Assembly: GCA_965242865.1 (NCBI GenBank)
Contig: CBDETK010000012.1
Coordinates: 1-21,965 of the forward strand
Source: Candidatus Latescibacterota bacterium
GTDB taxonomy: Bacteria; Latescibacterota; UBA2968; UBA8231
Reading direction: 5' to 3'
DNA length: 21,965 nt
Part shown: positions 1 to 21,926 of the stretch, piece after piece
Numbering within the stretch: position 1 is the first letter of the stretch
Layout of the letters: every line of letters starts with the position of its first letter
Program-made: the position numbers and the translations under genes
The notes under the pieces: generated by a model
What the model saw: the letters and a program-made list of their open reading frames with translations, nothing else
The model's database searches: none
What the model was told of the DNA's origin: nothing

Positions 1-3
1 GTT

Positions 4-585
4 TCAAGCTGCATGACCGATCGCCTCTTGCCAGACAGCGACGGTCCGGCGCGCCCAACCATGCAGGAAGCGTTGATTACTCGGACGATCCCGTACCGAG
101 TCGCAGTACAGGGCTATGCAGGCTATGCAGTAGCCCTTCTGCATGTCGGATGCGTTGAGGTCCGGTGACAACCAGTCCTCTACGGCCTGCCGGGTATTCC
201 TGCCCCACAGCCCATCGACGAACTTCGGCGACCCCAACAGGGGATTCGTCCACACCACCAATTGCTGCAGGGCGGCGATGGCGCGCTTGGGGCTGGTTGC
301 GGCCATGTGCGCGTACTGAAGCTGCAACGGCCTCGGCACGTGCTCGATATGGTTGGACTTCAGGTAAGTATCCCAAAAACGCAGCAGCATGGGCATCAGC
401 AAGTCTTGCAAGTCTGGCGAGTTCTTATTGCCGGTCCAGCGGTCCACTTCGTCCCAGCCTTCCCAGCCGGGATTGTAGTGCCGGGCAATGCCGGCATAGG
501 TCTCGCCGCCGCTGTCGTTGGGGTCGTTGACGTAGCCGCCCTCCGATTTGAGGACGGAAACGAGGATGGCATGCTCTACCATCAT
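4..585 (-). CDS. Glycoside hydrolase family 108 lysozyme/endolysin with peptidoglycan-binding C-terminus
   Basis: EGGYVNDPNDSGGETYAGI is the GH108 signature. VDGLWGRNT and RFLHGWARR are typical C-terminal motifs of this family. Confidence 0.92.
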   Translation of the reverse strand: MMVEHAILVSVLKSEGGYVNDPNDSGGETYAGIARHYNPGWEGWDEVDRWTGNKNSPDLQDLLMPMLLRFWDTYLKSNHIEHVPRPLQLQYAHMAATSPKRAIAALQQLVVWTNPLLGSPKFVDGLWGRNTRQAVEDWLSPDLNASDMQKGYCIACIALYCDSVRDRPSNQRFLHGWARRTVAVWQEAIGHAA

Positions 586-749
586 CGCTCCTTTCTTTGC
601 GCGCGCTCGCGTTTACGCTTATTCCGCGCGGCCAAGTTCCGCAGATTCATGGCGTGGCGCTTTGAGCAGTGCGGCGAGCACGTCTTGATGCGAGGGTTTA
701 AGGCACGGCGATACCCATCGATTGGGCTGCCGCAGACTGCACAGTTCAT
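582..749 (-). CDS. Small Cys4 zinc-binding protein with basic tail (55 aa), putative DNA-binding/regulator
   Basis: ATG at 749 preceded by AGGAGG. Contains CAVC...TCSPHC and a K/R-rich C-terminus. Its stop overlaps the lysozyme start. Confidence 0.75.
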   Translation of the reverse strand: MNCAVCGSPIDGYRRALNPRIKTCSPHCSKRHAMNLRNLAARNKRKRERAQRKER

Positions 750-814
750 AGAGCCTCCTGATTGCACAGACAAATAAATATGATGTGTCTGCGGATGTCC
801 AGCACTTTTTTTTA

Positions 815-896
815 TCCACAAATCCACAGCCCCTAGTACTACGATCCAAGGCTGTGGATTTGTCCTTACCACTACTAGGGGCTGTGGATTTGTGGA
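815..896. repeat. Perfect 24-bp inverted repeat with 34-bp spacer
   Basis: TCCACAAATCCACAGCCCCTAGTA (815-838) pairs with TACTAGGGGCTGTGGATTTGTGGA (873-896). GGCTGTGGATTTGT is also directly repeated at 850-863 and 880-893. Confidence 0.95.
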
Positions 897-910
897 CCCG
901 CCTATGAAGG

Positions 911-946
911 AAGGATGTAGAAAGGATGTGGAAAGAATGTGGAAAA
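911..946 (+). repeat. Three imperfect 11-bp tandem repeats
   Basis: AAGGATGTAGA, AAGGATGTGGA, AAGAATGTGGA. Confidence 0.9.
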
Positions 947-1014
947 CTAGCGATGCCCATACATCTTGCTATCTTTTCCACAAGATGGTGTGGAAAGGGG
1001 GTGGGCATGAAAAA

Positions 1015-2616
1015 GTGAAGGACGAGACCAAAAAAAGAAGGGCCAATCACGCAGCGTACATGCGTGAGTGGCGGCGCAAGCAGAAGGAGAAAAAGGCCGC
1101 TGCGTCCGTATGTCTGCGTTCGGCAGCCGAGTATGAACCGGACCTCGACGGCTTTTTTGCGTGGGCCGAAGCCAAGCTGAAAGTGCCCTCGGGGCCGTTG
1201 CAGGGCGAACCCTTCCTCATCGACGATTGGCAACAGCACTTCCTCCGCGAAGCGCACACTGCGCGCGAAAGCGGGCTGTCGGTGGCGCGGAAGAATGGGA
1301 AGTCTGGCCTAATAGCCGCCTACGTGCTGGGCCACTTGGTGGGGCCGCTCAATCGGCCCGATTGGCGCGGGGTCGTAATTAGCCTAACTGGCGAGCTGGC
1401 CAAAGAGCTGCGGCTGGCCATCTCATTAACGGCCGAAGCGAGCGGCTTCGAAATAATCGACCGGCAAACGCCCCAACCGGGTCGCGTCGAAGGCGACCGC
1501 GGGGCCGCGGTCAAATTCTTAGCCAGCGACCGGGCGACCGGGCACGCCATCGGCAGCGACTTAGCGATTATCGATGAGGCCGGCTTGCTCGAAGAGACAC
1601 ACCGCGAGCTATGGAACGCGGTGCTGTCCTCGACCAGCGGTCGCAACGGGCGCTTGCTCTGCATCAGCATTCAGGGGATGGGGCCGATGTTCAAGGAGAT
1701 GCGCGACCGCGCTCAGCGCGGAGTCTGCTGGCATGAATATGCCGCGCCGTTGACCGCGGCCATCGACCAGCCCCAGACCTGGCATGCGGCTAATCCGGGT
1801 TTACGCCGCGGCATTAAGTCCATGGAGTATATGCGCGACATGGCGCAACGGGCGCTCGACAGCCCAGCCGATCAGCCCTCGTTCCGCGCCTACGACCTCA
1901 ACCAGCCGCAGGATCCATCGCGTGAAAGTTTGTGCAGCTTAACCGATTGGATGGCGTGCGTGCACAAAGAGCCTGCGCCGCGAAGGGGGCCGTGCGTGAT
2001 TGGCTTCGACCTGGGGGGCGCATCGAGTATGACCGCGCTATGCGCTTTTTGGCCAGCTACGGGACGGGCCGAAGCATGGGGCGCGTTCCCCTCGACGCCG
2101 AATTTAATCGACCGCGGTGCCCGCGATGGAGTGGGCGGCCTGTACCAGCGCATGGCCGATCGCGGCGAGCTGAAGGTGTACCCGGGTCGAGTGACGCCGG
2201 TCGGAGAATTTCTGCTTGACTGCGCGGACCAGCTAAAAAATCAGGAAGTGTCGGCTGCCGGATGCGACCGCTATCGGGCGGCCGAAGCCGCCCAAGCCCT
2301 GCAGCAGGCGGCCATCAGTTGGCCGATGGTCTACCGCGGGCAGGGCGCGTCCGCCGGGGCCGACGGCAGCCACGATGTCCGAGCGTTCCAGCGCTACGTG
2401 TTGCGCGCCGACTGGTCGATGGCAGAAAGCCTGCTATTCGAAAGTGCGGTACGCGAATCCTCGATTCGCCGGGATCCGGCGGGCAACCCCGCGCTGGAAC
2501 GCTCCCGCTCGCGGGGGCGCATCGACGTACTGCAGGCTGGGGTGATTGCCGCGGGGCTGGGCGAGCTGCTGTTGGGAACGATCGGGCTGCCGCGGGCGCG
2601 GGTGGTGTTGGCGTGA
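1015..2616 (+). CDS. terL: Terminase large subunit (HK97-like/Terminase_1 type)
   Basis: Walker A VARKNGKS, Walker B LAIIDEAG, WHAANPGL, nuclease motifs IGFDLG and RIDVLQA. Start is uncertain: GTG 1015 chosen, ATG 1060 is an alternative. Confidence 0.95.
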   Translation: MKDETKKRRANHAAYMREWRRKQKEKKAAASVCLRSAAEYEPDLDGFFAWAEAKLKVPSGPLQGEPFLIDDWQQHFLREAHTARESGLSVARKNGKSGLIAAYVLGHLVGPLNRPDWRGVVISLTGELAKELRLAISLTAEASGFEIIDRQTPQPGRVEGDRGAAVKFLASDRATGHAIGSDLAIIDEAGLLEETHRELWNAVLSSTSGRNGRLLCISIQGMGPMFKEMRDRAQRGVCWHEYAAPLTAAIDQPQTWHAANPGLRRGIKSMEYMRDMAQRALDSPADQPSFRAYDLNQPQDPSRESLCSLTDWMACVHKEPAPRRGPCVIGFDLGGASSMTALCAFWPATGRAEAWGAFPSTPNLIDRGARDGVGGLYQRMADRGELKVYPGRVTPVGEFLLDCADQLKNQEVSAAGCDRYRAAEAAQALQQAAISWPMVYRGQGASAGADGSHDVRAFQRYVLRADWSMAESLLFESAVRESSIRRDPAGNPALERSRSRGRIDVLQAGVIAAGLGELLLGTIGLPRARVVLA

Positions 2617-2656
2617 AGCTTAATCGTTTGTCGAGCCTAAAAGCGGAAAAAAAAAC

Positions 2657-2938
2657 GTGAAGCCTTCCGTCAGCGTACGCCAAGCGCGCCGCAACTACCA
2701 GCTTCCGCGCTGGCGGCAGCTGCGGCGGCAGGTGTTTGAGCGCGACGGCTGGCGCTGCCGCCAGTGCGGGCGGGCCGGTCGATTGGAGTGCGATCATATC
2801 CGCAACTGGCGCGAAGGCGGCCCCTTCTGGTCGATGCACAATTTGCAGGCGCTGTGTAGGGGGTGCCATATTGAAAAGACGAGCCGCGAGGTGAAAGCGC
2901 GTAAACTCCAGTGGGACGATAGGTTGCAGGGGCTATGA
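2657..2938 (+). CDS. HNH endonuclease (HK97 gp74-like packaging cofactor)
   Basis: RWRQLRRQVFERDGWRCRQC...ECDHI...GG...NLQALCRGCHIEKT, adjacent to TerL. Confidence 0.93.
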   Translation: MKPSVSVRQARRNYQLPRWRQLRRQVFERDGWRCRQCGRAGRLECDHIRNWREGGPFWSMHNLQALCRGCHIEKTSREVKARKLQWDDRLQGL

Positions 2939-3984
2939 CGGAAGCAGTTCAGCCGCTTGATACAGTGCTGACGTGGAAGGACGTCGGGGATGGGGCGCCA
3001 GCGCAGGGCCTGATTGTCGAGGTAGGCGAAGGGGACGCAGAGCCGGCAGTCACCGGGAGAGAGGTGCGTGTTACGCCCGAGTTTGTGTTTAGCGGGGGCG
3101 TACAAGAAATGAGATTTCCGACTCGGCCGCAGGACCTGGCGGTGACAGATCCTATCCGAGTCACGGCCGGCAACTCCATATATTTAGCCGGGCATTCTGT
3201 GAATTCTATTGCTGAGTGGTATATAGCGGTCCAGTTAAACGCCGCGGTGCTTAGCGATACGAGCGCGGCTGTAAGAACGTTGGTCGAGGCCACCGGCACA
3301 GCCGGCACCGTCTTGCAGAATCCGCCCGCTCTTATCGGACTCAATATTGGTCCAAATTCGCCGTTGCCGAGCTACGTTATCGCGGCCGCCGGCCTGTCGC
3401 CGGGGGCGACCTTTCCAGACAATCAAGAGGTCGTCACCACGCTAAATTTGAGCTGGAACGGCCTCAACAGTTTTAACGATAGAATCCGGGGCACCCACTT
3501 GCTGGCGATTAAGCGGCCCATTGAAATTCGATACTTTGCGAACCACCGCTTCCTCGTTCTGCCAATCGCCAATAGCGACATCATATTTTCGTCGCGTTCG
3601 CGCCGCTCGGGCTTATCTGATTATAGAAGCAGGACGCCCATCCCAGGGACGCTGACGGCCCTGCCCGTGAATTGGACCTATCAAGGCGCGCCCACCGTTA
3701 GCCCTGAAGGTCCTTTCACGGCGCGCCGCCTGTTTGCTCGACGCGACGACAGCCAGGTCGAAACCGTCAATTACTCGACGGATGATGATGGCAATACAGT
3801 CGCCACGGTCCGAAGGGCTACCGATTTTATCGTCCGGCGCGACACCATCCCGCCGGTCAGTGCGCTACTTTCCGAGTTCGACACGTGGGACGGCAGCCGC
3901 CCGGTCTGGAGCGTCGAAACCGTCGAACATCTCGACCGCGCTCGCTTTGCTCGACTGAGGTGTTCCGAATTTGTTGTTGTGTAA
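2935..3984 (+). CDS. Putative head-closure/stopper (SPP1 gp16-like) protein with a large inserted domain, 349 aa
   Basis: N-terminal LDTVLTW and C-terminal LFARR...TDFIVRR...WSVETVEHLDRARFARLRCSE resemble the head-tail joining family pattern. ATGA overlap with HNH. The CDS is solid; the function is inferred. Confidence 0.55.
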   Translation: MTEAVQPLDTVLTWKDVGDGAPAQGLIVEVGEGDAEPAVTGREVRVTPEFVFSGGVQEMRFPTRPQDLAVTDPIRVTAGNSIYLAGHSVNSIAEWYIAVQLNAAVLSDTSAAVRTLVEATGTAGTVLQNPPALIGLNIGPNSPLPSYVIAAAGLSPGATFPDNQEVVTTLNLSWNGLNSFNDRIRGTHLLAIKRPIEIRYFANHRFLVLPIANSDIIFSSRSRRSGLSDYRSRTPIPGTLTALPVNWTYQGAPTVSPEGPFTARRLFARRDDSQVETVNYSTDDDGNTVATVRRATDFIVRRDTIPPVSALLSEFDTWDGSRPVWSVETVEHLDRARFARLRCSEFVVV

Positions 3985-4007
3985 CCCATTCACAGGAGGA
4001 CTTCCCT

Positions 4008-5279
4008 TTGACCCCTTTGCAGAAACTCCAAGTTCGGCAGTCCGAGCTTCGTCAGCGCGTCAACGATTTGTTGGGCAAGGACACGCTCGAAGACGCGGAG
4101 GCGACCGAGCTGGAAAAAGCCACCCGCGAGCTGCAGGACATCGAGCCGAAATTGCGGGCCGCGCTCGTAGCCCAAGACGACGGCTCGACCGCGGACGAAG
4201 ACCCCGCGGACGACGAACAAAAGCGCGACGACAACCCGGACGCCGAAGTCCGCGAGCTGCAGGAGCTATCCTGCCGCGCCCTGCTGTCCAACTTCGCCGT
4301 CTCAGCCCTCAGCCAGCGCAACGCCGAAGGCGCGGAAAAAGAGCTGGCCGAAGCGTTCAAAATCCCCGCGGACGCCGGCCACATCCCGCTGATTATGCTG
4401 GTCGCGCCCGAAGAGCGGGCCGATGCGGTCAGCGACTTCAATGCCGCGGACGCGCCGGTGTCTTCGGGCCGCTTCCTGGCGCGGGTGTTCACCACGTCGA
4501 TAGCCCGCTGGCTGGGCGTCACCTTCGAGAGCGTGCCCGTAGGCGAGCGCGTCCACACGGTGCTCACCGGCGGCGTCGATCCGGACACCGTAGCCCGCGC
4601 TGCCGCCCACGATGCGGACGCGGCCACGCTGTCGACGGTCGTCATGGATCCGCACCGCATCACGGCGCGGTACCTGTTCGAGCTCGAAGATTTGGCGCGG
4701 CTGCCGCAGTTGGAAGCGCGGCTGAGGCAGGACTTGTCGATGGCGTTGGCCAACGAGATGGACGATCAGATTTTCAACGGCAACGCCCAACTGATGTCCA
4801 ACGGCCTGTCCAACGCGCTGGCGGCCGGCCAGACCGAGACGGTAGCCACCTTCTCGACGGCGACCGCCGAAGACCTCCATGGGGACGTCCTCTCGGCGAT
4901 TGATGGGGTGTACGCGACCATGCTCGAGGACGTGCGGTTGGCGATGGATAGCAGCTCGCTGGTCGCATTCAAGAAGTTGGTCAATGCGGACGTGGAAATG
5001 TTCCTCTACGACATCCTCAAGATGCAGGGGCTGTCGATGAACTCGTCCAACCACATCGCGGGCGGGCAGCTGGCCGACGGCGACAAGTGGGCCTATGCCT
5101 CGAAGGGGCGCGGGCTGGCCGGCGCCGCGATCGCGGCCGTGTGGCCGTCCCTGCAGCTCATCCGCGATCCGTACACGGCCGCGGCCAAGGGCCAAGTCGC
5201 CCTCACCATCATTCAGATGTGGGATTTCGCCCTCATTCGCGCGGCCAACTTCCGCCGCTTCGTCGCGACCGCGAAGTGA
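4008..5279 (+). CDS. Major capsid protein, HK97 fold with N-terminal coiled-coil scaffold (delta) domain, 423 aa
   Basis: AGGAGG at 3994-3999 before TTG 4008. Contains LRQDLSMALANEMDDQIFNG and the C-terminal LIRDPYTAAAKGQVALTIIQMWDFALIRAANF. Confidence 0.92.
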   Translation: MTPLQKLQVRQSELRQRVNDLLGKDTLEDAEATELEKATRELQDIEPKLRAALVAQDDGSTADEDPADDEQKRDDNPDAEVRELQELSCRALLSNFAVSALSQRNAEGAEKELAEAFKIPADAGHIPLIMLVAPEERADAVSDFNAADAPVSSGRFLARVFTTSIARWLGVTFESVPVGERVHTVLTGGVDPDTVARAAAHDADAATLSTVVMDPHRITARYLFELEDLARLPQLEARLRQDLSMALANEMDDQIFNGNAQLMSNGLSNALAAGQTETVATFSTATAEDLHGDVLSAIDGVYATMLEDVRLAMDSSSLVAFKKLVNADVEMFLYDILKMQGLSMNSSNHIAGGQLADGDKWAYASKGRGLAGAAIAAVWPSLQLIRDPYTAAAKGQVALTIIQMWDFALIRAANFRRFVATAK

Positions 5280-5824
5280 CCGCGGCCAAACAATCCGCCG
5301 CCCTGCCACTGGCCTTTACCCGCAACGAGAGCGGGGACCTAGCGAGGGGGTTAGGCACTGTGCGCGGGGCGGCTATTATCTGGGGGGACGTAGCCCGATT
5401 AGGCCGGGGCGCGTTTGCCTTGCGCGAGCAGTTCAAGCGCGGGGCGTTGACGCCCTACAACCGCGGGGTGATAGCGTCCGTCCAGCACGACCGCTCGCAA
5501 TTGCTGGCGCAATACCCTAACGGCGGCCTGCGGCTCGACAGCCGCGATCGCGGCTACTTCGTCGAAATTGATCTACCCGATACCACCGTGGGGCGCGATG
5601 CGGCCGCGCTCATCGACCGCGGGGCGCTTCGGGGCTTGTCGATTGAGTTTGTCGATGAGAAAATCCGTGACCGCGGCCACCGCGATATCGTCATCGAGCG
5701 GGCCACCATAACGGGCGTTTCCATCGTCGATCGGCCGGCCTATCCCCAATCGGAGATCGAGTTTATTCAACGTTGGCTCGACGCGCCGCCGGCGAAACCT
5801 TCACGGAGATCACGATGGCTCTAA
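5276..5824 (+). CDS. HK97-family prohead protease, 182 aa
   Basis: GTGA overlap with capsid stop. Motifs EQFKRGA, QHDR, LPDTTVGRD, GLSIEF and VSIVDRPAYP. Confidence 0.92.
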   Translation: MTAAKQSAALPLAFTRNESGDLARGLGTVRGAAIIWGDVARLGRGAFALREQFKRGALTPYNRGVIASVQHDRSQLLAQYPNGGLRLDSRDRGYFVEIDLPDTTVGRDAAALIDRGALRGLSIEFVDEKIRDRGHRDIVIERATITGVSIVDRPAYPQSEIEFIQRWLDAPPAKPSRRSRWL

Positions 5825-8385
5825 CCGTCGCTCAACTGCTCAACGCGATACGGGCCGCGCCCGAAGGCGAGGTCGTCAGCGCCCAACTGACGGCGATTGG
5901 CACGCGCCTGTTGGCGGTCGGGCGTGCGCTGGTCGATACCTACGCGCCGCTGGCCCCCGAAGACGTGCGCGACGAGGCGGTTATTAGGGTGGCTGGCTAT
6001 CTCTACGACGCGCCCAACGTGACGCGCTCTGGGGTGGCCTGGAACGAAAGCGGAGCGCACGCGCTGGTCGACCCGTGGGTACAGCGCGGCGTTGCGCCGG
6101 TCGATTTTGACTTGACGGCCGTGGCCGCGGCCAGCCAGGGCGCGGGCGTGGACGAAGATGCGGTCGAAGCGATTGTGCGGCGGCTGGTTGCCGACTGGGC
6201 CGAAGCCGATAGTTCGGCTGCCGTCCCAGAAGCGAAGCTGCCCAGCGATTCAACCGCGTTCATCGAACTGGGCAGCTTTGTGTTCAATGCCTCTGGCACC
6301 ACGTTCGTAGACAGCAATATTGCTCTGCCGGCTGCCGGCTGGATTATAATCGACTTCGATGGGGGCCGAACGTTTTGGATTGACAGCGCTAAGTTCCGAC
6401 TGGGCCGCGCCCAAGTCGCAGGCGCTGCGCCGGCTGCCGGGGATTCGCTTCAATTTCCCGGTGCCATCGGGCATGGCTCCGTCTTTATTGATATTTGGCT
6501 GGGCCACACCGCCGCTCAAAACATCTTGGTCAGCAATCGAAGGGGCTCAGGTGCGACCGGGTTTAGTGTCTATCGCGTATCGATTGGCTCCAGTAGCGGC
6601 GGTTTAACCCAAGCGCAGGTCGATGCGCGCATTGGCGCCCGCGTCGAGGCGTGGGCTACGCAAGGCTCAGGGGATACGCCGGCCGCGGCCGATTTAGCCG
6701 ACAACCCGAACGTGGGCCAAGTGCTCAAGGCCGCGTCCGACGGCGACGCGGAATGGGCCAATGAATCCGGGGGCCTCACGCAAGCCCAGGTCGACGCCCG
6801 CGTGGCGGCCGTCGAGGGACCTGACCCAGCTACGTGGGCCGAAGACGGCAACGCGGACCAAATCCCCGCCAACAAGCTGGCCAACGCCCCGTCGGGCGGG
6901 GGCGGCCTCACTCAAGCGCAGGTCGACGCCCGGGTACAGGCCGGCGTCAAGGACAAAGCCGAGACCGGCGGCGGCAAGTGGGCCTACCCGGACGATTATA
7001 TCCTGCCGCAGGGCCTCGAAGCCCTGAACCGCGTCATGGCCGCCGGCGGCTGGGAAGCCCGTTCAGGCGACCTACAGGTGTCGGGGCCGCGGGCGGCGAC
7101 GTGGAACGCCAACCAAGCGACCGCGGCCTCCTTCGCCGACAGCGTCCAGCACGGCACGAGCCAAGAGAACTGGTATGTCTTAGTGCGGGCAGCCAACAGC
7201 TTAGGCAACGACCCCGCGAAATTTCGGCTCAACATCGACGACGACCTCTATCAGTCCCTGATGGGCGTGGCCGAAGTGTTCGACTCGGCTAATGCCATGT
7301 GGTACTATTTCGCCGTCCAAGTGTCGCGGCTGCCGGCCGGGGCTGTCGTCACAGCCGAGTATGACGAAGACGTTGAGCTGGGCGCGGATGTCGATGTCAA
7401 TGCGCCCAACGTCAAAGGCAATCTGACGGACGCTCGCATTGCCGCGGCCCGGGTGGACGGACTGGACGCGGCCATCGACCAGCGCGCCCCGCGGACCGCG
7501 GGGCTGGTAGAGCTGCACAACGGGGTGATGGGCGCGCCGACGCTGGTCGATCTGTCGGGCCACCGCTATTCCGTGCGGCAGGCGACGACGTTTGACCTCG
7601 ACGATCATCCGCAAGGGGTGTTCGAGTTCGAGGTGCGGCTGACGCTATCGGAAACCAGGGTCCCAATCAACCTGTCGCTTGCCAGCGACAGCGTCACTCG
7701 GACCGCGACGATTGAAGGGCTTTTGACGGCCACCGCGCTGAGCGCGTCCGCGGCCGCGGCCAACCCGGGGGCTGGCGTGGGACTCGTACAGGGGGAGGCG
7801 TCCCTGTACAGCGGCAGTGCCCTGCAAGGCAAGGTCAAATTCTACGTCGCGAAAGATGCCAACAACGTCGTCTGGAGCTATTTGGAGTACGATGGGGAGG
7901 CGACGGCGGTCAGTGGGAACGGGGCGTTGACGGCGAACTTGGTGTTCGACTTTCAGCGGTCGGATGGAGGGGGCGCCGCCGGCCCTAGTAGCCCCTGGAC
8001 GCTAGAGGACTCGAGCGTCAACAACTACAACATGAACCAGACAACTGGTAGAACACACACCGTAAACACCGATCTGGTCCTGCCTGCCGATTGGCAGAAT
8101 AAGTTTTTTATGATTACGAACTATAACGGCCCGACCTTTTTCTTCCGTGGTGGTGACTCTGCCCTAGTCGGTGGCTATGTCAGCTCGTCGCCTAGGAGGG
8201 TGCAAATTTGGGATTCAGAGGTGTCTTCGCTCTATATCGGCCGCACGTCTGCGGCCCTGCCTCGAAACCTGAGCTTTTACTCGAGCAGTAAAAGGCGTAG
8301 TGGGCCGACCTCTGGATCCAATGCACAGTACATGAGGATACTCATATCGCAGCCCCGGCTGTATTCGCAAGTGCTGCCGACGTAA
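5815..8385 (+). CDS. Head-tail adaptor (HK97 gp6/SPP1 gp15-like) N-terminal domain fused to a long fibre/adhesin-like extension, 856 aa
   Basis: GGAGA before ATG 5815. The first ~92 aa fit the gp6 pattern (RLLAVGRALVDTYAP.APEDVRDEAVIRVAGYLYD...ALVDPW). The remainder is G/A/S-rich with repeated linkers and beta-rich blocks. Confidence 0.75.
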   Translation: MALTVAQLLNAIRAAPEGEVVSAQLTAIGTRLLAVGRALVDTYAPLAPEDVRDEAVIRVAGYLYDAPNVTRSGVAWNESGAHALVDPWVQRGVAPVDFDLTAVAAASQGAGVDEDAVEAIVRRLVADWAEADSSAAVPEAKLPSDSTAFIELGSFVFNASGTTFVDSNIALPAAGWIIIDFDGGRTFWIDSAKFRLGRAQVAGAAPAAGDSLQFPGAIGHGSVFIDIWLGHTAAQNILVSNRRGSGATGFSVYRVSIGSSSGGLTQAQVDARIGARVEAWATQGSGDTPAAADLADNPNVGQVLKAASDGDAEWANESGGLTQAQVDARVAAVEGPDPATWAEDGNADQIPANKLANAPSGGGGLTQAQVDARVQAGVKDKAETGGGKWAYPDDYILPQGLEALNRVMAAGGWEARSGDLQVSGPRAATWNANQATAASFADSVQHGTSQENWYVLVRAANSLGNDPAKFRLNIDDDLYQSLMGVAEVFDSANAMWYYFAVQVSRLPAGAVVTAEYDEDVELGADVDVNAPNVKGNLTDARIAAARVDGLDAAIDQRAPRTAGLVELHNGVMGAPTLVDLSGHRYSVRQATTFDLDDHPQGVFEFEVRLTLSETRVPINLSLASDSVTRTATIEGLLTATALSASAAAANPGAGVGLVQGEASLYSGSALQGKVKFYVAKDANNVVWSYLEYDGEATAVSGNGALTANLVFDFQRSDGGGAAGPSSPWTLEDSSVNNYNMNQTTGRTHTVNTDLVLPADWQNKFFMITNYNGPTFFFRGGDSALVGGYVSSSPRRVQIWDSEVSSLYIGRTSAALPRNLSFYSSSKRRSGPTSGSNAQYMRILISQPRLYSQVLPT
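6598..6936 (+). repeat. Three copies of the coding repeat GGLTQAQVDAR(I/V)
   Basis: At 6598-6633, 6769-6804 and 6901-6936, with synonymous divergence between copies. Confidence 0.9.
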
Positions 8386-8810
8386 TGGCCAACCCTACCC
8401 TTTTTAATCGAGCCGTCCGCGACATCGTTTGGGACGAGATGAAAAACGGGCGCACCGGCTTGGAGCTGGTAGCCAGCATGCCCGAACGCACGGGCAATCT
8501 GAAACGGTCGTACCGGGTCACTCGGCCCAACAGCCGCACGGTGCGCGTTTCGTTCCCCGGAGCGGATTATTTGGTTCTGCCGGTCATACGTGTCCGGTTC
8601 AACGAAAAAAATCAGCGGCTGGCTGCGGCGGTGTTCGACGCGGAGCGCTTGGCTGTTCGCCGTCGCCAGAGCGACATCGCCCAAGCCGTCTTTATGTTCT
8701 TGGGCGCTCACTTCGCTCGAGAATTTTCTCAAGCGAGCGACCCCAACTTCTTCTTCCGTATCAACAGACAGCTGCGCTTCGCGGGGCGCACCGTAAACCT
8801 CACGAGGTGA
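8385..8810 (+). CDS. HK97 gp10-like neck/tail-completion protein, 141 aa
   Basis: MPERTGNLKRSYRV matches the P-x-x-TG-x-L-x-x-S motif. TAATG overlap with the upstream gene. Confidence 0.6.
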   Translation: MANPTLFNRAVRDIVWDEMKNGRTGLELVASMPERTGNLKRSYRVTRPNSRTVRVSFPGADYLVLPVIRVRFNEKNQRLAAAVFDAERLAVRRRQSDIAQAVFMFLGAHFAREFSQASDPNFFFRINRQLRFAGRTVNLTR

Positions 8811-8813
8811 AAA

Positions 8814-8945
8814 ATGGGCGATTGGCTCCTCCAAGAAGGCATTGACCTGTTCGACGTGCTCACCGTGGTCTGCACGGCCATGTTGACGAAGTTGATACAC
8901 GCCGAGCGTCACCGCCGCAAGCGCGAGCGGAAGCATCACAAGTGA
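8814..8945 (+). CDS. 43-aa putative single-pass membrane peptide (holin candidate), not in the ORF track
   Basis: GAGGTG at 8804-8809 before ATG. Translation: MGDWLLQEGIDLFDVLTVVCTAMLTKLIHAERHRRKRERKHHK. It fills the gap exactly, with a GTGA overlap into portal. Confidence 0.65.
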   Translation: MGDWLLQEGIDLFDVLTVVCTAMLTKLIHAERHRRKRERKHHK

Positions 8946-10066
8946 AGGCCCTCGATTGGTTTCGGCCCGCGGTCCTCCGCCAGCGCGTCCATCAACTCGC
9001 GCTCGCCGAGTGGCGCGCCATTTCCTTCTCCTCCGCCATCGAGCGCGCCGTCGAGGAGCAGGCCCAAGCCAGCGGCGAAGCCATCCGCGCGGGGCTGGCT
9101 GCCCAAGAAGCCTGCGCCGGTCTCTGGGAGCGCGCGTTTGCCTCCGCGACCGTGCGCGGGCGCCGAGCGCAGGGCGTGTGCGGCCCGTCGATGCTCGCGC
9201 TGGTAGCCCGCGAATTTGTCTATACGGGCGAAAGCTGTTGGCTGTTGGAGGTGCTCGATGATGGGATGCTGGCCGCTGGGATTGCTTCGTCGTGGGAGGT
9301 CAACGGCCCGGGCGTCTATCCCCAGCGCTGGCGCTATCGGCTCGACGTGCTGGGGCCTTCGGGCAACCGCACGCGCCGCGCGAACTGGGATGGCGTGCTG
9401 CATTTTATGATTGGCCGCCGCCCTGAGCAGCCCTGGAAGGGCCAAGCCCCGCTGGAGCGCGCATCGGCTACCCAACGTCTAGCCAACCTGCTGGAGACGC
9501 GGCTGGGCGAAGAAGCGGCCGCCCAGGTAGGCAATATCATTGCCTTGCCGCGCGACCCATCCCCGCGGCAAAAGCCCGACGGCACGATGTACGATCCGCT
9601 GGAAGACACCCGCAAAGCACTAGGCAGTATCCGCGGCAAAACGGTGCTCGTCGAGACGACGGCCAGCGGCTGGGGCGAAGGCCGCTTTTCCGCGCCGCGG
9701 CAGGACTGGACACCCCAGCGGATAGGCCCCAATCCCCCCGACAGCCTAGGGACGCTCCGCGTAGAAGTCAGCCGCATCATCACCGCGGCGTTGGGCGTAC
9801 CGCCCGCGTTACTCGAAGAAAGTTCGGACGGAACCAGCCAGCGCGAGAGCTGGCGACGCTTCCTGCATGGCACGATTCAGCCCGTAGCTGAAATCGTAGC
9901 TGAAGAGCTGTCGATCAAGCTGGACGAGCGCGTGCAACTCAATTTCGACCGCCTGTTCGCGTCCGACTTAAGCGGTCGTGCACGTGCGTTTCAGAGTATG
10001 GTTGGGGGGGGTATGGCGGTGGATAAAGCGGCGGCCCTTTCGGGCCTAATGGAACAAGAGGCATGA
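8942..10066 (+). CDS. Portal protein (HK97-like), 374 aa
   Basis: REFVYTGESCW, VLHF...GQAPL, ITAALGVPPALL and FLHGTIQPVAEIVAEELSIKL follow the HK97 portal pattern. Confidence 0.9.
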   Translation: MKALDWFRPAVLRQRVHQLALAEWRAISFSSAIERAVEEQAQASGEAIRAGLAAQEACAGLWERAFASATVRGRRAQGVCGPSMLALVAREFVYTGESCWLLEVLDDGMLAAGIASSWEVNGPGVYPQRWRYRLDVLGPSGNRTRRANWDGVLHFMIGRRPEQPWKGQAPLERASATQRLANLLETRLGEEAAAQVGNIIALPRDPSPRQKPDGTMYDPLEDTRKALGSIRGKTVLVETTASGWGEGRFSAPRQDWTPQRIGPNPPDSLGTLRVEVSRIITAALGVPPALLEESSDGTSQRESWRRFLHGTIQPVAEIVAEELSIKLDERVQLNFDRLFASDLSGRARAFQSMVGGGMAVDKAAALSGLMEQEA

Positions 10067-10098
10067 TCGAAATTCTCGACTGGACTTCATAAGCCGTA

Positions 10099-10132
10099 CA
10101 AACGAACGATAATAGGATTTATCGTTAGTTTG
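10099..10132. other. 14-bp inverted repeat (1 mismatch) with 6-bp spacer; dif-like recombination site, operator or terminator
   Basis: CAAACGAACGATAA-TAGGAT-TTATCGTTAGTTTG between convergent genes. The repeat is directly seen; the function is inferred. Confidence 0.5.
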
Positions 10133-10236
10133 GATCGTTCTTCATAGGGGAAAAACGAGAGCGTTTATTCGGCTTTTATCCGCTCTTCTGTCCCCATTAG
10201 CTGGCCATCGATCCAGCATTCCGGTGCCGACAGGGG

Positions 10237-10265
10237 TAGCGACGGGCGATTTAGCCAAGTCGCTA
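10237..10265 (-). terminator. Possible hairpin ending the minus-strand operon
   Basis: TAGCGAC (10237-10243) pairs with GTCGCTA (10259-10265) just after the stop at 10268. No U-tract. Confidence 0.3.
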
Positions 10266-10267
10266 AA

Positions 10268-10438
10268 CTAATTTAATGCGATGCCTCTCCAGCGCGGCTT
10301 ACGCCCTCGATTGTGAATAGTAATCGAGCAAAAGCCTATCACCGTTTTGAATTTTCCGATGGGAGTGCGCAGCTGAAGTCGTATCCTCAGCGGCACCTCG
10401 TCGTCGAGCGGAATGTATAGCCACGTTTCAAGCTGCAT
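10268..10438 (-). CDS. Hypothetical 56-aa protein downstream of the lysozyme
   Basis: ATG at 10438 with GAGG upstream, overlapping the lysozyme 3' end. Translation MQLETWLYIPLDDEVPLRIRLQLRTPIGKFKTVIGFCSITIHNRGRKPRWRGIALN. Confidence 0.5.
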   Translation of the reverse strand: MQLETWLYIPLDDEVPLRIRLQLRTPIGKFKTVIGFCSITIHNRGRKPRWRGIALN

Positions 10439-11009
10439 GACCGATCGCCTCTTGCCAGACAGCGACGGTCCGGCGCGCCCAACCATGCAGGAAGCGTTGA
10501 TTACTCGGACGATCCCGTACCGAGTCGCAGTACAGGGCTATGCAGGCTATGCAGTAGCCCTTCTGCATGTCGGATGCGTTGAGGTCCGGTGACAACCAGT
10601 CCTCTACGGCCTGCCGGGTATTCCTGCCCCACAGCCCATCGACGAACTTCGGCGACCCCAACAGGGGATTCGTCCACACCACCAATTGCTGCAGGGCGGC
10701 GATGGCGCGCTTGGGGCTGGTTGCGGCCATGTGCGCGTACTGAAGCTGCAACGGCCTCGGCACGTGCTCGATATGGTTGGACTTCAGGTAAGTATCCCAA
10801 AAACGCAGCAGCATGGGCATCAGCAAGTCTTGCAAGTCTGGCGAGTTCTTATTGCCGGTCCAGCGGTCCACTTCGTCCCAGCCTTCCCAGCCGGGATTGT
10901 AGTGCCGGGCAATGCCGGCATAGGTCTCGCCGCCGCTGTCGTTGGGGTCGTTGACGTAGCCGCCCTCCGATTTGAGGACGGAAACGAGGATGGCATGCTC
11001 TACCATCAT
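10428..11009 (-). CDS. GH108 lysozyme/endolysin (copy 2)
   Basis: Identical translation to 4..585. Confidence 0.92.
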   Translation of the reverse strand: MMVEHAILVSVLKSEGGYVNDPNDSGGETYAGIARHYNPGWEGWDEVDRWTGNKNSPDLQDLLMPMLLRFWDTYLKSNHIEHVPRPLQLQYAHMAATSPKRAIAALQQLVVWTNPLLGSPKFVDGLWGRNTRQAVEDWLSPDLNASDMQKGYCIACIALYCDSVRDRPSNQRFLHGWARRTVAVWQEAIGHAA

Positions 11010-11173
11010 CGCTCCTTTCTTTGCGCGCGCTCGCGTTTACGCTTATTCCGCGCGGCCAAGTTCCGCAGATTCATGGCGTGGCGCTTTGAGCAGTGCGGCG
11101 AGCACGTCTTGATGCGAGGGTTTAAGGCACGGCGATACCCATCGATTGGGCTGCCGCAGACTGCACAGTTCAT
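11006..11173 (-). CDS. Small Cys4 zinc-binding protein (copy 2)
   Basis: Identical to 582..749. Confidence 0.75.
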   Translation of the reverse strand: MNCAVCGSPIDGYRRALNPRIKTCSPHCSKRHAMNLRNLAARNKRKRERAQRKER

Positions 11174-11235
11174 AGAGCCTCCTGATTGCACAGACAAATA
11201 AATATGATGTGTCTGCGGATGTCCAGCACTTTTTT

Positions 11236-11421
11236 TTATCCACAAATCCACAGCCCCTAGTACTACGATCCAAGGCTGTGGATTTGTCCTTACCACTACT
11301 AGGGGCTGTGGATTTGTGGACCCGCCTATGAAGGAAGGATGTAGAAAGGATGTGGAAAGAATGTGGAAAACTAGCGATGCCCATACATCTTGCTATCTTT
11401 TCCACAAGATGGTGTGGAAAG
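11236..11421. promoter_or_regulatory. DnaA-box cluster, putative origin (copy 2)
   Basis: Identical to 812..997. Confidence 0.75.
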
Positions 11422-11505
11422 GGGACGGCGGGGGCGGCGGCGGGGACCCCTGCGGCGGTCGCGCCTATGGGGGACAAACCGCGCACGGGGGACACGCGCT
11501 TTCAC
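11421..11505 (+). other. G-rich segment upstream of terL, candidate cos/packaging site
   Basis: Four GGGGAC motifs (11421, 11442, 11470, 11488). 11425-11505 is absent from copy 1. Confidence 0.45.
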
Positions 11506-11519
11506 GTGGGCATGAAAAA

Positions 11520-13121
11520 GTGAAGGACGAGACCAAAAAAAGAAGGGCCAATCACGCAGCGTACATGCGTGAGTGGCGGCGCAAGCAGAAGGAGAAAAAG
11601 GCCGCTGCGTCCGTATGTCTGCGTTCGGCAGCCGAGTATGAACCGGACCTCGACGGCTTTTTTGCGTGGGCCGAAGCCAAGCTGAAAGTGCCCTCGGGGC
11701 CGTTGCAGGGCGAACCCTTCCTCATCGACGATTGGCAACAGCACTTCCTCCGCGAAGCGCACACTGCGCGCGAAAGCGGGCTGTCGGTGGCGCGGAAGAA
11801 TGGGAAGTCTGGCCTAATAGCCGCCTACGTGCTGGGCCACTTGGTGGGGCCGCTCAATCGGCCCGATTGGCGCGGGGTCGTAATTAGCCTAACTGGCGAG
11901 CTGGCCAAAGAGCTGCGGCTGGCCATCTCATTAACGGCCGAAGCGAGCGGCTTCGAAATAATCGACCGGCAAACGCCCCAACCGGGTCGCGTCGAAGGCG
12001 ACCGCGGGGCCGCGGTCAAATTCTTAGCCAGCGACCGGGCGACCGGGCACGCCATCGGCAGCGACTTAGCGATTATCGATGAGGCCGGCTTGCTCGAAGA
12101 GACACACCGCGAGCTATGGAACGCGGTGCTGTCCTCGACCAGCGGTCGCAACGGGCGCTTGCTCTGCATCAGCATTCAGGGGATGGGGCCGATGTTCAAG
12201 GAGATGCGCGACCGCGCTCAGCGCGGAGTCTGCTGGCATGAATATGCCGCGCCGTTGACCGCGGCCATCGACCAGCCCCAGACCTGGCATGCGGCTAATC
12301 CGGGTTTACGCCGCGGCATTAAGTCCATGGAGTATATGCGCGACATGGCGCAACGGGCGCTCGACAGCCCAGCCGATCAGCCCTCGTTCCGCGCCTACGA
12401 CCTCAACCAGCCGCAGGATCCATCGCGTGAAAGTTTGTGCAGCTTAACCGATTGGATGGCGTGCGTGCACAAAGAGCCTGCGCCGCGAAGGGGGCCGTGC
12501 GTGATTGGCTTCGACCTGGGGGGCGCATCGAGTATGACCGCGCTATGCGCTTTTTGGCCAGCTACGGGACGGGCCGAAGCATGGGGCGCGTTCCCCTCGA
12601 CGCCGAATTTAATCGACCGCGGTGCCCGCGATGGAGTGGGCGGCCTGTACCAGCGCATGGCCGATCGCGGCGAGCTGAAGGTGTACCCGGGTCGAGTGAC
12701 GCCGGTCGGAGAATTTCTGCTTGACTGCGCGGACCAGCTAAAAAATCAGGAAGTGTCGGCTGCCGGATGCGACCGCTATCGGGCGGCCGAAGCCGCCCAA
12801 GCCCTGCAGCAGGCGGCCATCAGTTGGCCGATGGTCTACCGCGGGCAGGGCGCGTCCGCCGGGGCCGACGGCAGCCACGATGTCCGAGCGTTCCAGCGCT
12901 ACGTGTTGCGCGCCGACTGGTCGATGGCAGAAAGCCTGCTATTCGAAAGTGCGGTACGCGAATCCTCGATTCGCCGGGATCCGGCGGGCAACCCCGCGCT
13001 GGAACGCTCCCGCTCGCGGGGGCGCATCGACGTACTGCAGGCTGGGGTGATTGCCGCGGGGCTGGGCGAGCTGCTGTTGGGAACGATCGGGCTGCCGCGG
13101 GCGCGGGTGGTGTTGGCGTGA
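11520..13121 (+). CDS. terL: Terminase large subunit (copy 2)
   Basis: Identical translation to copy 1 from the GTG start onward. Confidence 0.95.
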   Translation: MKDETKKRRANHAAYMREWRRKQKEKKAAASVCLRSAAEYEPDLDGFFAWAEAKLKVPSGPLQGEPFLIDDWQQHFLREAHTARESGLSVARKNGKSGLIAAYVLGHLVGPLNRPDWRGVVISLTGELAKELRLAISLTAEASGFEIIDRQTPQPGRVEGDRGAAVKFLASDRATGHAIGSDLAIIDEAGLLEETHRELWNAVLSSTSGRNGRLLCISIQGMGPMFKEMRDRAQRGVCWHEYAAPLTAAIDQPQTWHAANPGLRRGIKSMEYMRDMAQRALDSPADQPSFRAYDLNQPQDPSRESLCSLTDWMACVHKEPAPRRGPCVIGFDLGGASSMTALCAFWPATGRAEAWGAFPSTPNLIDRGARDGVGGLYQRMADRGELKVYPGRVTPVGEFLLDCADQLKNQEVSAAGCDRYRAAEAAQALQQAAISWPMVYRGQGASAGADGSHDVRAFQRYVLRADWSMAESLLFESAVRESSIRRDPAGNPALERSRSRGRIDVLQAGVIAAGLGELLLGTIGLPRARVVLA

Positions 13122-21740: not shown

Positions 21741-21926
21741 TTATCCACAAATCCACAGCCCCTAGTACTACGATCCAAGGCTGTGGATTTGTCCTTACCA
21801 CTACTAGGGGCTGTGGATTTGTGGACCCGCCTATGAAGGAAGGATGTAGAAAGGATGTGGAAAGAATGTGGAAAACTAGCGATGCCCATACATCTTGCTA
21901 TCTTTTCCACAAGATGGTGTGGAAAG
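21741..21926. promoter_or_regulatory. DnaA-box cluster, putative origin (copy 3)
   Basis: Identical to 812..997. Confidence 0.75.

Follow-up and report, generated by a model that had tools for sequence, protein, structure and literature searches.

An oriC-like cluster of DnaA boxes, possibly a replication origin, on a virus-like, capsid-encoding element from a Candidatus Latescibacterota bacterium

The window, by which we mean the whole 21,965-nucleotide stretch of DNA analyzed here, consists of 2.1 tandem units of 10,424 and 10,505 bp. The 5.6-Mb chromosome (C13) has no copy of the element in the window (C12), and the element's head-to-tail joint is present in contigs of all four sequencing runs, from two studies. 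Judged from its gene content, the 10.5-kb DNA is a virus-like, capsid-encoding extrachromosomal element; judged from these contigs, it exists in tandem or circular form. Its genes are arranged divergently around a single intergenic region, with a Cys4/endolysin operon running leftward and a TerL-to-portal operon running rightward:

4..585, minus strand: endolysin (GH108 + PG_binding_3)
582..749, minus strand: Cys4 protein, 55 aa
750..1014, no strand: divergent intergenic region, the lowest G+C of the unit, containing the entire DnaA-box cluster
1015..2616, plus strand: large terminase (TerL)
2657..2938, plus strand: HNH endonuclease
2935..3984, plus strand: p349, hypervariable, no function assigned
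3885..5279, plus strand: HK97-fold major capsid protein
5087..5824, plus strand: prohead protease (S78)
5773..8385, plus strand: p870, no function assigned, with weak leads to LamG-type viral fibre proteins
8385..8810, plus strand: p141, no function assigned
8942..10066, plus strand: portal protein
11425..11505, plus strand: segment of 81 nt, rich in G+C and containing three GGGG(G)AC motifs; units 2 and 3 have it, unit 1 lacks it (junction 1000/1001)

The nearest named phages to the large terminase are HK97/HK022-like, at 27% identity, and a gene start near 1015 is backed by the G013 relative, with an alignment from its residue 2. The likeness of the Cys4 protein to DksA/TraR C4 zinc fingers is weak and below cutoff (TIGR02419, E = 0.003 and 18 bits against a cutoff of 59.7; PF01258, E = 0.05). 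The p349 protein is only 39–42% identical between C12 and two variants of the element, C9 and C6, and its AF2 model has a pLDDT of 46, too low for a structure search. PDB sequence searches with p349 and p870 gave no meaningful match, atlas leads for both all scored below 0.9, and p141 does not resemble the G011 island's head-completion protein. Searches of the element's 11 ORFs against Pfam, PHROGs and NCBIfam revealed no Rep, primase, helicase or integrase family, and a six-frame search of C12, C9 and C6 gave no match to the tyrosine integrase family PF00589. The preliminary description had called the element Rep-less. The term is apt in the sense that none was found, with four ORFs (p349, p870, p141 and p72) lacking an assigned function.

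The intergenic region has a G+C content of 0.51, versus 0.62 overall, and its 30-mers are 1–2.7 sd less stable than the unit mean. Its features are as follows:

804..811, plus strand: T8 tract, immediately upstream of box 1
812..820, plus strand: box 1, TTATCCACA, a perfect consensus DnaA box
815..838, plus strand: left arm of a perfect 24-nt inverted repeat
820..828, plus strand: box 2, AAATCCACA, with 2 mismatches; shares one base with box 1
829..833, plus strand: GCCCC spacer; the end of box 1 lies 13 bp from the first trio
834..845, plus strand: four DnaA-trio-like triplets, TAG TAC TAC GAT, each with a middle A, the first being 3'-GAT-5'
850..863, minus strand: third copy, inverted, of the 14-mer ACAAATCCACAGCC
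853..861, minus strand: box 3, TGTGGATTT on the top strand
872..877, minus strand: right-arm triplets TAG TAG, followed by TGG, so that only two are consecutive
873..896, minus strand: right arm of the inverted repeat
883..891, minus strand: box 4, TGTGGATTT on the top strand and AAATCCACA on the bottom strand
891..899, minus strand: box 5, TGTGGACCC on the top strand and GGGTCCACA on the bottom strand, 3 mismatches, with TGTGG at +79 from the first base of box 1
916..946, minus strand: three-box array TGTAGAAAG-GA-TGTGGAAAG-AA-TGTGGAAAA, with boxes at 916, 927 and 938 (11-bp period, 2-bp gaps)
974..982, plus strand: box 9, TTTTCCACA, 1 mismatch, deleted in one C9 copy
989..997, minus strand: box 10, TGTGGAAAG, deleted in one C9 copy
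11236..11323, plus strand: second identical copy of the 812-899 block
21741..21828, plus strand: third identical copy of the 812-899 block

On the top strand, 812-845 reads TTATCCACA-AATCCACA-GCCCC-TAG-TAC-TAC-GAT, and the bottom strand from 899 reads GGGTCCACA-AATCCACA-GCCCC-TAG-TAG-TGG-TAA. A repeat search returned the two arms, which are 100% complementary over 24 nt with 34 nt between them, and the inverted 14-mer at 850-863. The strand readings, the perfect repeat and a further box-like copy between the arms had all been reported in the preliminary description, and are as described there. Its triplet frame, GCCC|CTA GTA CTA CGA, was off by one; the frame that puts A in the middle is GCCCC|TAG TAC TAC GAT. 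The extent it gave for the feature, 812-899, corresponds to a real block that is part of a larger cluster, with more boxes at 916, 927, 938, 974 and 989. Altogether, ten DnaA boxes in both orientations lie within 812-997. Box 1, box 2 and G829 make up an 18-mer that is present in the origins of many bacteria. Within the trio segment, TAGTACTA is palindromic, such that the bottom strand also reads TAG TAC TAG towards box 3. Position 919 is A in the window; run X2 and the two C9 copies have a G there, which yields TGTGGAAAG.

Chance is excluded as the origin of the repeat and the boxes. No perfect inverted repeat exceeded 13 nt in 50 shuffles, whereas the longest in the unit reaches 24 nt. Matches to TTATCCACA with up to one mismatch number 11 in the window versus 1.6 expected, and those to TGTGGATTT number 9 versus 2.4 expected; none of 100 shuffles reached either count. 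Nine of the unit's 11 TCCACA/TGTGGA hexamers fall within 815-997, and this density, 9 in 250 bp, is the maximum of the 6-Mb assembly. The next-densest count is 4, found at five places that include the chromosomal oriC.

Other signals were sought in the same stretch. No Rfam family was found in 1-11600, and a scan covering one promoter type found no sigma-70-like promoter, and no terminator, in 500-1200. GC skew switches at the intergenic region and tracks gene orientation; it was set aside as origin evidence because it is not independent of that orientation. A coding role for 812-899 was rejected because the Cys4 ATG lies at 749 after AGGAGG, and TerL aligns with its relatives from ~1015. A Xer/dif-type resolution site was likewise rejected, as there is no likeness when judged by eye.

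How closely does the cluster resemble a known unwinding module? As described in the available text of PMC8287927, the basal unwinding system (BUS) of B. subtilis oriC comprises DnaA-boxes 6/7, a GC-rich spacer and DnaA-trios. The search rule given there requires a DnaA box with up to 2 mismatches to TTATCCACA, allows an optional tandem box with up to 4 mismatches provided that the upstream box is the better one, and asks for a box-to-trio spacer of 0–16 bp (13 bp being commonest) and at least 3 consecutive NAN trios (PMC8287927). The left arm agrees with the rule throughout, with a 0-mismatch box, a 2-mismatch tandem box, a 13-bp spacer and four trios. The preliminary description had proposed two such modules facing each other, and only this left one passes. 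In the right arm the AAATCCACA box has 2 mismatches, but the GGGTCCACA box upstream of it is worse, with 3, and the bottom strand TAG TAG TGG TAA has two consecutive trios only. The left arm shares with the BUS, as far as the source describes it, the identical 18-mer box pair, a C-rich spacer reaching 13 bp from box 1, and middle-A triplets led by 5'-TAG, at least three in number (PMC8287927). The element differs in that the site is on phage-like extrachromosomal DNA, has only four trios and no AT-rich tract, and has an extra box and a mirrored module within 60 bp. Indeed, A+T is 0.50 at +17 to +46 past the 18-mer, versus a median of 0.90 at the same offset in the 69 genomic 18-mer examples with trios. 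There is no strongly unstable 30-mer between the arms; the center of the repeat falls just ~1.5 sd below the mean stability of the unit, whose least stable 30-mers are elsewhere.

The missing AT-rich tract favors the main rival explanation, in which the boxes serve DnaA-controlled divergent promoters, a DnaA sink, or both, with replication started in some other way. As regulatory sites, they would let DnaA-ATP repress or activate the lysis and the packaging/structural operons, coupling particle production to the host replication state; as a sink, boxes on a multicopy element may titrate DnaA from oriC. The cluster occupies the sole space for both promoters, and since these must fall within the same 265 bp, the boxes are equally compatible with a role in regulation alone. 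The element also has no recognizable regulator, apart from the weak DksA/TraR-like zinc finger. We nonetheless consider this explanation unlikely. A promoter or sink needs boxes only, leaving the C-rich spacer, the in-phase TAG-led trios and the convergent box at +79 unexplained, and a non-integrated element would be left without an origin. The absence of sigma-70-like promoters in 500-1200, in the scan of one promoter type, also speaks against it.

The exact 18-mer occurs in at least 114 genomes, followed by at least 3 NAN triplets in 78 and by at least 3 TAN triplets in 69, and dnaA or dnaN lies within 300 nt of it in 53, including the B. subtilis group. The preliminary description had called for a comparison with known origins; in the B. 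subtilis group, as in many other genomes, the oriC box pair is exactly this 18-mer. Its statement that the B. subtilis element is nearly the same is also borne out: B. subtilis-group genomes L036, L048 and L105 read TTATCCACAAATCCACAG GCCCTAC TAT TAC T... adjoining dnaA.

The likeness extends to the host family. The oriC of two of its genera, g3 and g8, is TTATCCACACATCCACACCCCCTACTA, which is identical to the element at 24 of 27 positions. In all 24 of the family's dnaA-dnaN intergenic origins, a convergent (A/G)TGTGGATT starts 79–81 nt from box 1, whereas a convergent TGTGG box at +77 to +83 is found at only 4 of the 114 loci from other genomes. The host-family convergent box is, in itself, a testable feature of chromosomal origins outside model organisms. 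Facing modules had been thought unusual for an origin; in this family a convergent box is the rule, and the element copies that geometry. Host-family origins and the element are alike in having a box pair at an 8-nt offset, trios, and a convergent TGTGGATT-type box at +79 to +81, and some of the family's origins have a double form, TGTGGATTGTGG, comparable to the element's TGTGGATTTGTGGA. They differ in what lies around these parts. In the chromosomes, an A-rich tract of ~30 nt separates the trios from the convergent box, and two ATACACAC motifs come next; the element instead has an additional box and a perfect palindrome, with the three-box array after them. The block itself sits on C12 and not beside dnaA/dnaN; the host oriC is at C13:3686349-3686539.

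Given that the core resembles chromosomal oriC cores, it might be an inert passenger, an unused oriC fragment of some bacterium gained by recombination. This is highly improbable. The present host's own origin reads TTATCCACATATCCCGAGTACAAC... and differs, such that the element's core is not copied from it, and the sequence has been remodeled as a perfect 24-nt palindrome, to which further boxes in an array have been added. The region is also invariant among variants that differ elsewhere. Among close variants within one assembly, the four full copies (C12 and C9) agree throughout 750-965 but for a single A/G polymorphism, the G version of which improves a box; elsewhere the variants differ by 3–18%. 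The third variant, C6, diverges straight after the second trio, 31 nt before the contig end, and this 31-nt tail has no match. Conservation in related elements, another check raised by the preliminary description, holds for 750-965 between C12 and C9 and does not reach the intact chromosomal relatives G011 and G013. These are roughly 9-kb islands that encode a tyrosine integrase next to the portal gene and lack a box cluster.

We put the probability at roughly one half that 804-997, with its core at 812-899, is an oriC-type DnaA assembly site, most likely the vegetative origin of the element, mimicking the host oriC core. What supports the origin reading? First, the box density is the highest in the assembly, the left arm conforms to the BUS rule, and the 18-mer is an oriC signature. 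Second, the 24/27 host-family match, the +79 geometry and the 2-bp spacing of the array all point to an origin. Third, no initiator or integrase was found, the element occurs in a free tandem or circular form, and 750-965 is conserved among close variants. Fourth, the absence of a box cluster from G011 and G013 is the difference expected of relatives that carry an integrase. Several points count against the origin reading: the lack of an AT-rich unwinding tract; the trios, which fall short of the rule in the right arm and number only four in the left; the need for both promoters to lie in the same stretch; the four ORFs with no assigned function, any of which may be an initiator; and a conservation seen among variants of one assembly. 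Because the site is host-origin-like and mirrored, and no replication or integration gene is recognizable, the element probably borrows host DnaA. We infer that host DnaA alone may initiate its replication.

The genes next to the cluster suggest another function, namely a packaging or element-specific site: a cos/pac site, or binding sites for one of the element's own proteins (the HNH protein, the Cys4 protein or the terminase, whose N-terminus is basic), with the likeness to DnaA boxes being secondary. Where TerL and HNH genes occur together, cos sites are found close to the terminase genes. The element has the genes of an HK97-type cos system, an HK97-like TerL with an adjacent HNH gene, and the region lies directly upstream of them; no small terminase was identified on the element, and twofold symmetry is common at nicking sites. 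Such a site is improbable because the origin match is too specific, encompassing 18 of 18 positions of a pan-bacterial box pair, the host-family BUS match and the +79 geometry. In addition, the adjoining G+C-rich segment at 11425-11505, a candidate packaging site with no further copy in the genome, is at least an equal cos candidate; the Cys4 protein resembles, weakly, RNA-polymerase-binding DksA/TraR fingers rather than a DNA binder; and distant relatives with the same terminase module lack such repeats.

If the cluster is an origin, initiation could proceed as follows. Host DnaA-ATP would bind the box pair at 812-828 and seven boxes in the opposite orientation (853, 883, 891, 916, 927, 938 and 989), and the three boxes spaced 2 bp apart would nucleate an oligomer. 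Oligomers from both sides would meet at the trio segment 834-845, which has trios on both strands, and open the ~54-bp center. In place of an AT-rich tract, two things may aid opening: the negative supercoiling that the pair of divergent operons generates, and hairpins formed when the 24-bp arms are extruded. These hairpins would hold boxes double-stranded beside single-stranded loops, comparable to an ABC-primosome site, and the host helicase could then be loaded on both strands. A bolder proposal, tentative and in our view doubtful as a whole, is that a tailed-phage-like capsid element has lost its initiator as well as its integrase and persists as a viral minichromosome whose sole replicator is a symmetrized mimic of a host-lineage oriC core. 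Two DnaA oligomers would converge on trios that can be read on either strand, the 24-bp arms would become box-bearing hairpins, and opening and helicase loading on both strands would occur without an AT-rich element.

It is also conceivable that the hairpin acts purely as a single-strand initiation signal. Its duplex boxes would recruit DnaA, helicase and primase on single-stranded DNA, for example on a displaced strand of rolling-circle replication that yields concatemers; complementary-strand synthesis would be started without opening of a duplex, in the manner of an ABC primosome. As single-stranded DNA, the arms are predicted to fold at −30.6 kcal/mol (z = −8.9), none of 200 shuffles folds as well, and the stem contains boxes 1 and 2. 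The element does occur as tandem concatemers, and, according to the available text of PMC6127211, DnaA on a box-bearing hairpin loads DnaB on SSB-coated single-stranded DNA. We nevertheless regard this as quite improbable, as searches of the element recovered neither a nickase nor a rolling-circle Rep, and a hairpin would leave the +79 geometry, the trios and the seven further boxes unaccounted for. The ABC-primosome A site, as described there, is likewise a stable hairpin with DnaA boxes in its stem; it contains a single box, and the DNA on which it acts is that of phages or plasmids in single-stranded form (PMC6127211). The element is not known to pass through a single-stranded stage.

Parts of the cluster have parallels in other systems. 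Low-affinity DnaA sites in E. coli oriC are described as clusters with 2-bp spacing (PMC6070618). The element resembles those arrays, as far as that source describes them, in its same-orientation 9-mers 2 bp apart (916-946), its stronger flanking boxes and its opposed box groups; it has three sites versus four per E. coli array, and the hosts are unrelated (PMC6070618). T5-like phages, in the available text of bioRxiv 10.1101/866236, similarly have about eight DnaA boxes, with pairs in inverted repeats, in a non-coding region. The T5 pairs lie in the first-step-transfer region, far from mapped origins, with a 3-bp separation and no spacer-plus-trio structure in that account, whereas the element's paired boxes overlap by one base. 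The T5 type also has one pair per inverted repeat and lies in a terminal repeat, a feature that the element is not known to have. T5 also encodes its own replication proteins, and the role suggested for its boxes, stopping injection, is a proposal (bioRxiv 10.1101/866236). In the descriptions available, cf-PICIs and small HK97-type capsid islands share with the element a size of ~10 kb and TerL, HNH, portal, protease and HK97-fold capsid genes, and the element's chromosomal relatives are likewise islands with an integrase. In contrast to cf-PICIs as described, the element has an endolysin and an 870-aa fibre-like protein, no integrase or primase-replicase module was found on it, and every observed form is free DNA, tandem or circular; neither the integrase nor the chromosomal attachment that characterizes a capsid-forming PICI was found for C12, C9 or C6. 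Box-plus-trio unwinding modules are described for chromosomal origins in the available text of PMC8287927, and a limited search of open-access text found no published description of one on an initiator-less phage, satellite or plasmid.

What would be the implications of an origin at this site? First, a virus-like element could replicate by copying the host replicator instead of encoding an initiator. Second, its host range would be tied to the DnaA and the origin grammar of the host. Third, it would compete directly with oriC for DnaA-ATP. Fourth, it would be a natural experiment on a minimal unwinding core, with four trios, a palindrome and no AT-rich tract. Should the symmetrized-mimic proposal be true, BUS-type modules would be transferable to mobile DNA, and an inverted repeat could replace an AT-rich tract. 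Even if the cluster were only a DnaA-controlled promoter or sink, it would still be a compact case of a mobile element reading the host replication state.

Close relatives of the element are scarce in the collections searched. TerL has only 23%-identity matches in IMG/VR, no match in GTDB genome contigs and a single match, at 23%, in JGI metagenomes; its best identities are at most 34% in plasmids and 27% in phages. Across the 132 genomes of the class, it was found only in G011, G013 and G075. A blastn search of plasmids and phages with the 266-bp region gave no match. For the hypervariable p349, five homologues are encoded on ENA/Logan contigs, and one of these contigs is 10,520 nt long.

The preliminary description gave window 812-899 as a perfect 24-nt inverted repeat, and its sequence is correct: the arms lie at 815-838 and 873-896, and window 812-845 reads TTATCCACA AATCCACA GCCCC TAG TAC TAC GAT. 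The box-like copy placed between the arms is a third copy of a 14-mer, inverted, at 850-863. In 50 shuffles of the unit no inverted repeat exceeded 13 nt, compared with the 24 nt observed, and as single-stranded DNA the repeat has a predicted fold of -30.6 kcal/mol, equalled in stability by 0 of 200 shuffles. Further boxes follow to the right, and of the 11 TCCACA/TGTGGA hexamers in the unit, nine are within 815-997. Nowhere else in the assembly are these hexamers so dense; the next-densest places, the chromosomal origin among them, have four. The entire cluster is inside a 265-bp divergent intergenic region that has the lowest G+C of the unit, with the repeat centre just moderately below the element's average stability.

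Features of the DnaA-box region and genes of the unit (window coordinates)
812-820, box 1
820-828, box 2
834-845, trios of the left arm
916, 927 and 938, three boxes in the same orientation, with 2-bp gaps
974 and 989, two more boxes
Leftward genes: Cys4 protein (55 aa); GH108 endolysin
Rightward genes: large terminase, HNH endonuclease, p349, HK97-fold capsid protein, S78 prohead protease, p870, p141, portal

What might this cluster do? A DnaA-dependent origin is the reading we favor, with a probability of roughly one half. Scanning one genome per species with the element's 18-mer (812-829) gave at least 114 loci, mostly in Bacillota and including B. subtilis-group genomes. The B. subtilis element that the preliminary description gave as nearly the same is confirmed: in this group, the 18-mer is followed by GCCC TAC TAT TAC TTC TAC TAT and T/A-rich DNA. 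Among the 114 listed loci, 78 have at least three NAN triplets after the 18-mer, 69 have at least three TAN triplets, and 53 have a dnaA or dnaN gene in the 300-nt flanks. A published search rule for the basal unwinding system (BUS; box pair, spacer and trios) specifies a first box with ≤2 mismatches, an optional second with ≤4, a spacer of ≤16 bp (13 being commonest) and ≥3 NAN triplets, the commonest triplet adjoining the box being 3'-GAT-5' (PMC8287927). The left arm agrees on every item: its boxes have 0 and 2 mismatches, its spacer is 13 bp long, and its four triplets begin with 5'-TAG. The right arm falls outside the rule, with three mismatches in its outer box and the triplets TAG TAG TGG, so the two modules are not equivalent. 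At three loci in other genomes (L085, labelled a Magnetococcales MAG, L117 and L138), an inverted repeat of 14-16 nt, CACAAATCCACAGGCC ... GGCCTGTGGATTTGTG, is built from the same box pair; the arms there are ~28 nt apart without trios between them, and dnaA and dnaN were undetected within 300 nt.

A closer model for the facing arrangement is found in the host lineage itself. The host dnaA gene is at C13:3686681-3688018 on the chromosome, and the dnaA-dnaN spacer contains consensus boxes plus TTATCCACA TATCCCGAG TAC AAC TAG AAT TAT TAA..., a putative core that is BUS-like with a long NAN-triplet run. Among the order's 76 genomes, the element's 27-mer with ≤3 mismatches found TTATCCACACATCCACACCCCCTACTA, identical at 24 of 27 positions, in two other genera. 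The pattern TTATCCACAYATCC has one match in each of 24 of the 76 genomes, namely 22 of the 31 in the host genus (the host assembly included) and one each from two other genera, and it lies between dnaA and dnaN in all 24. Each of these origins runs from the box pair through trio-like triplets and an A-rich tract to a convergent box, (A/G)TGTGGATT, whose TGTGG starts 79-81 nt past the first base of box 1 in 24/24; two loci (L162 and L163) have a double convergent form, TGTGGATTGTGG. In the element, TGTGG occurs at +41, +71 and +79, the last two as TGTGGATTTGTGGA. Only 4 of the 114 listed loci from other genomes have TGTGG at +77 to +83. Because this geometry is shared by the host family and rare elsewhere, the best reading of the "two facing modules" is that they copy the unwinding core of the host family, which consists of a box pair, ~60 bp and a facing box. 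The element differs from that core in that its right side is now a perfect mirror of the left, and a third box replaces the A-rich centre. Host-specific origin mimicry is well supported by sequence comparison. Such a copy might be an inert captured fragment, which we consider very improbable. The host-family origins (G000:C13:3686200-3686540; L156-L179) also carry two conserved ATACACAC motifs past the convergent box, at ~+105 and ~+130.

In the proposed origin, the strong pair and the seven oppositely oriented boxes would be occupied by host DnaA-ATP, which would oligomerise with help from the 2-bp-spaced three-box array; low-affinity clusters with 2-bp-spaced sites are described for E. coli oriC (PMC6070618). 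The oligomers would meet at 834-845, a segment whose palindromic TAGTACTA gives trios on both strands. The weakest point of the origin reading is the absent AT-rich tract: the A+T fraction of the 30 nt past the first trios is 0.50, compared with a median of 0.90 in 69 genomic examples. Divergent transcription and hairpin extrusion may make up for this. The extruded arms would keep double-stranded boxes beside single-stranded loops, resembling the A site of the ABC primosome, at which DnaA bound to a hairpin with a DnaA box loads DnaB (PMC6127211). That the repeat is a hairpin priming signal only is quite unlikely.

Alternatively, the boxes could place the divergent promoters under DnaA control, act as a DnaA sink, or do both, a tentative reading to which we give appreciable weight. 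Both divergent promoters necessarily lie within the same DNA as the boxes, and T5-like phages have eight DnaA boxes, arranged in pairs within inverted repeats, at a distance from their origins (10.1101/866236). DnaA-box clusters on phage DNA are therefore not new in themselves; in open-access papers and preprints we found no phage, satellite or initiator-less plasmid described as carrying a box-plus-trio module, and the element's box architecture is striking. Another dense cluster of putative DnaA boxes on viral DNA occurs in an IMG/VR contig (G076, 9632-9893; L180/L182), with 20 TCCACA/TGTGGA hexamers in ~260 bp, the same 18-mer included. That contig is a 23.7-kb phage fragment of 45% G+C encoding dCMP deaminase and thymidylate synthase, in which a search for dnaA (TIGR00362) found none.

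The assembly has 13 contigs totalling 6.0 Mb, of which the chromosome accounts for 5.6 Mb. The window is the entire contig C12, which contains one element as 2.1 head-to-tail units (unit 1, 10,424 bp; units 2 + 3, 10,505 bp) differing by an 81-nt G+C-rich insertion at 1000/1001 and two substitutions. Mosaic variants occur on contigs C9 (two units, ~94-99% identical to C12 with patches of 82%) and C6 (a partial unit), and no part of the element was present on the chromosome. The element, with the joint closing the 10,505-bp unit on itself, is found in Logan contigs from 4/4 runs in two studies. C12 (21,965 nt) and C9 (22,004 nt) are near-equal in length at ~2.1 units each, with different start points within the unit; read length or a packaged headful could be the cause.

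Searches of the element's ORFs against Pfam, PHROGs and NCBIfam matched no Rep, primase, helicase, recombinase or integrase family. "Rep-less" here means that none was found, because p349, p870, p141 and p72 could be assigned no function from searches. A six-frame search of the assembly for the tyrosine-integrase family had matches on the chromosome alone, and none on the element. Of the 75 other genomes in the host's family, 3 have terminase relatives (43-51% identity), and two more, G047 and G009, have weaker matches (32-47% identity, E 1e-16 to 1e-45); there were none at E ≤ 1e-60 in 56 genomes of the class's other three families. The relatives have in common with the element the unusual order TerL-HNH-capsid-protease-portal. 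The two intact relatives (L025 in G013 and L027 in G011) are ~9-kb chromosomal islands ending in a tyrosine integrase, with the order TerL-HNH-capsid-protease-(head completion)-portal-tyrosine integrase; decayed copies with transposases on their flanks are L024 (G075) and L026 (the second G011 copy). No DnaA-box cluster was found in four 20-kb loci of relatives, the maximum being two hexamers per 250 bp. Thus, in these few, related cases, integrated relatives have an integrase and no boxes, whereas the free element has boxes and no integrase; among the comparative evidence, this contrast argues most for a role in maintenance or replication.

Within the assembly, the four full copies on C12 and C9 do not differ across window 750-965 save at position 919 (= 11343), which is A on C12 (TGTAGAAAG) and G in both C9 copies and run X2 (TGTGGAAAG). 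The G reaches full depth in run X2, and TGTGGAAAG is the better box. On C6 the left module is retained, with a single change in box 1; C6 splits from C12 after CCCCTAGTAC, 31 nt short of its contig end, and a search with this tail gave no match. The right-hand part of the region is dispensable in some copies: C12 unit 1 does not have the 81-nt segment, and one C9 copy is without ~118 nt, boxes 9 and 10 included. Full and deleted units are adjacent in both contigs. The 81-nt segment (11425-11505) is 78% G+C, with three GGGG(G)AC motifs and several G runs, and is a candidate cos or pac site or G-quadruplex region. The boxes are unlikely to mark a packaging site or to be bound by proteins of the element itself: the terminase's nearest named relatives are HK97/HK022-like and the HNH partner is present, but the adjacent 81-nt segment is at least equal as a candidate.

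Other parts of the unit vary more. p349 (2935-3984) is just 39-42% identical among the C12, C9 and C6 variants, in DNA that is mostly 94-99% identical (lower in places on C6), and a search of 5.8 billion proteins found only eight homologues of it; p870 and p141 are also partly divergent. This suggests host-recognition or counter-defence functions under diversifying selection. The portal and endolysin operons converge on a second non-coding stretch, 10066-10430 (52% G+C), in which visual inspection shows two short inverted repeats able to form hairpins; a 72-aa ORF on the minus strand (10268-10486) overlaps the endolysin gene's end. Contigs C2, C4 and C11 of the host assembly form a second small-contig family, mutually mosaic (92-99% identical in patches) and unrelated to the element, which suggests an assembly with several multi-variant extrachromosomal elements.
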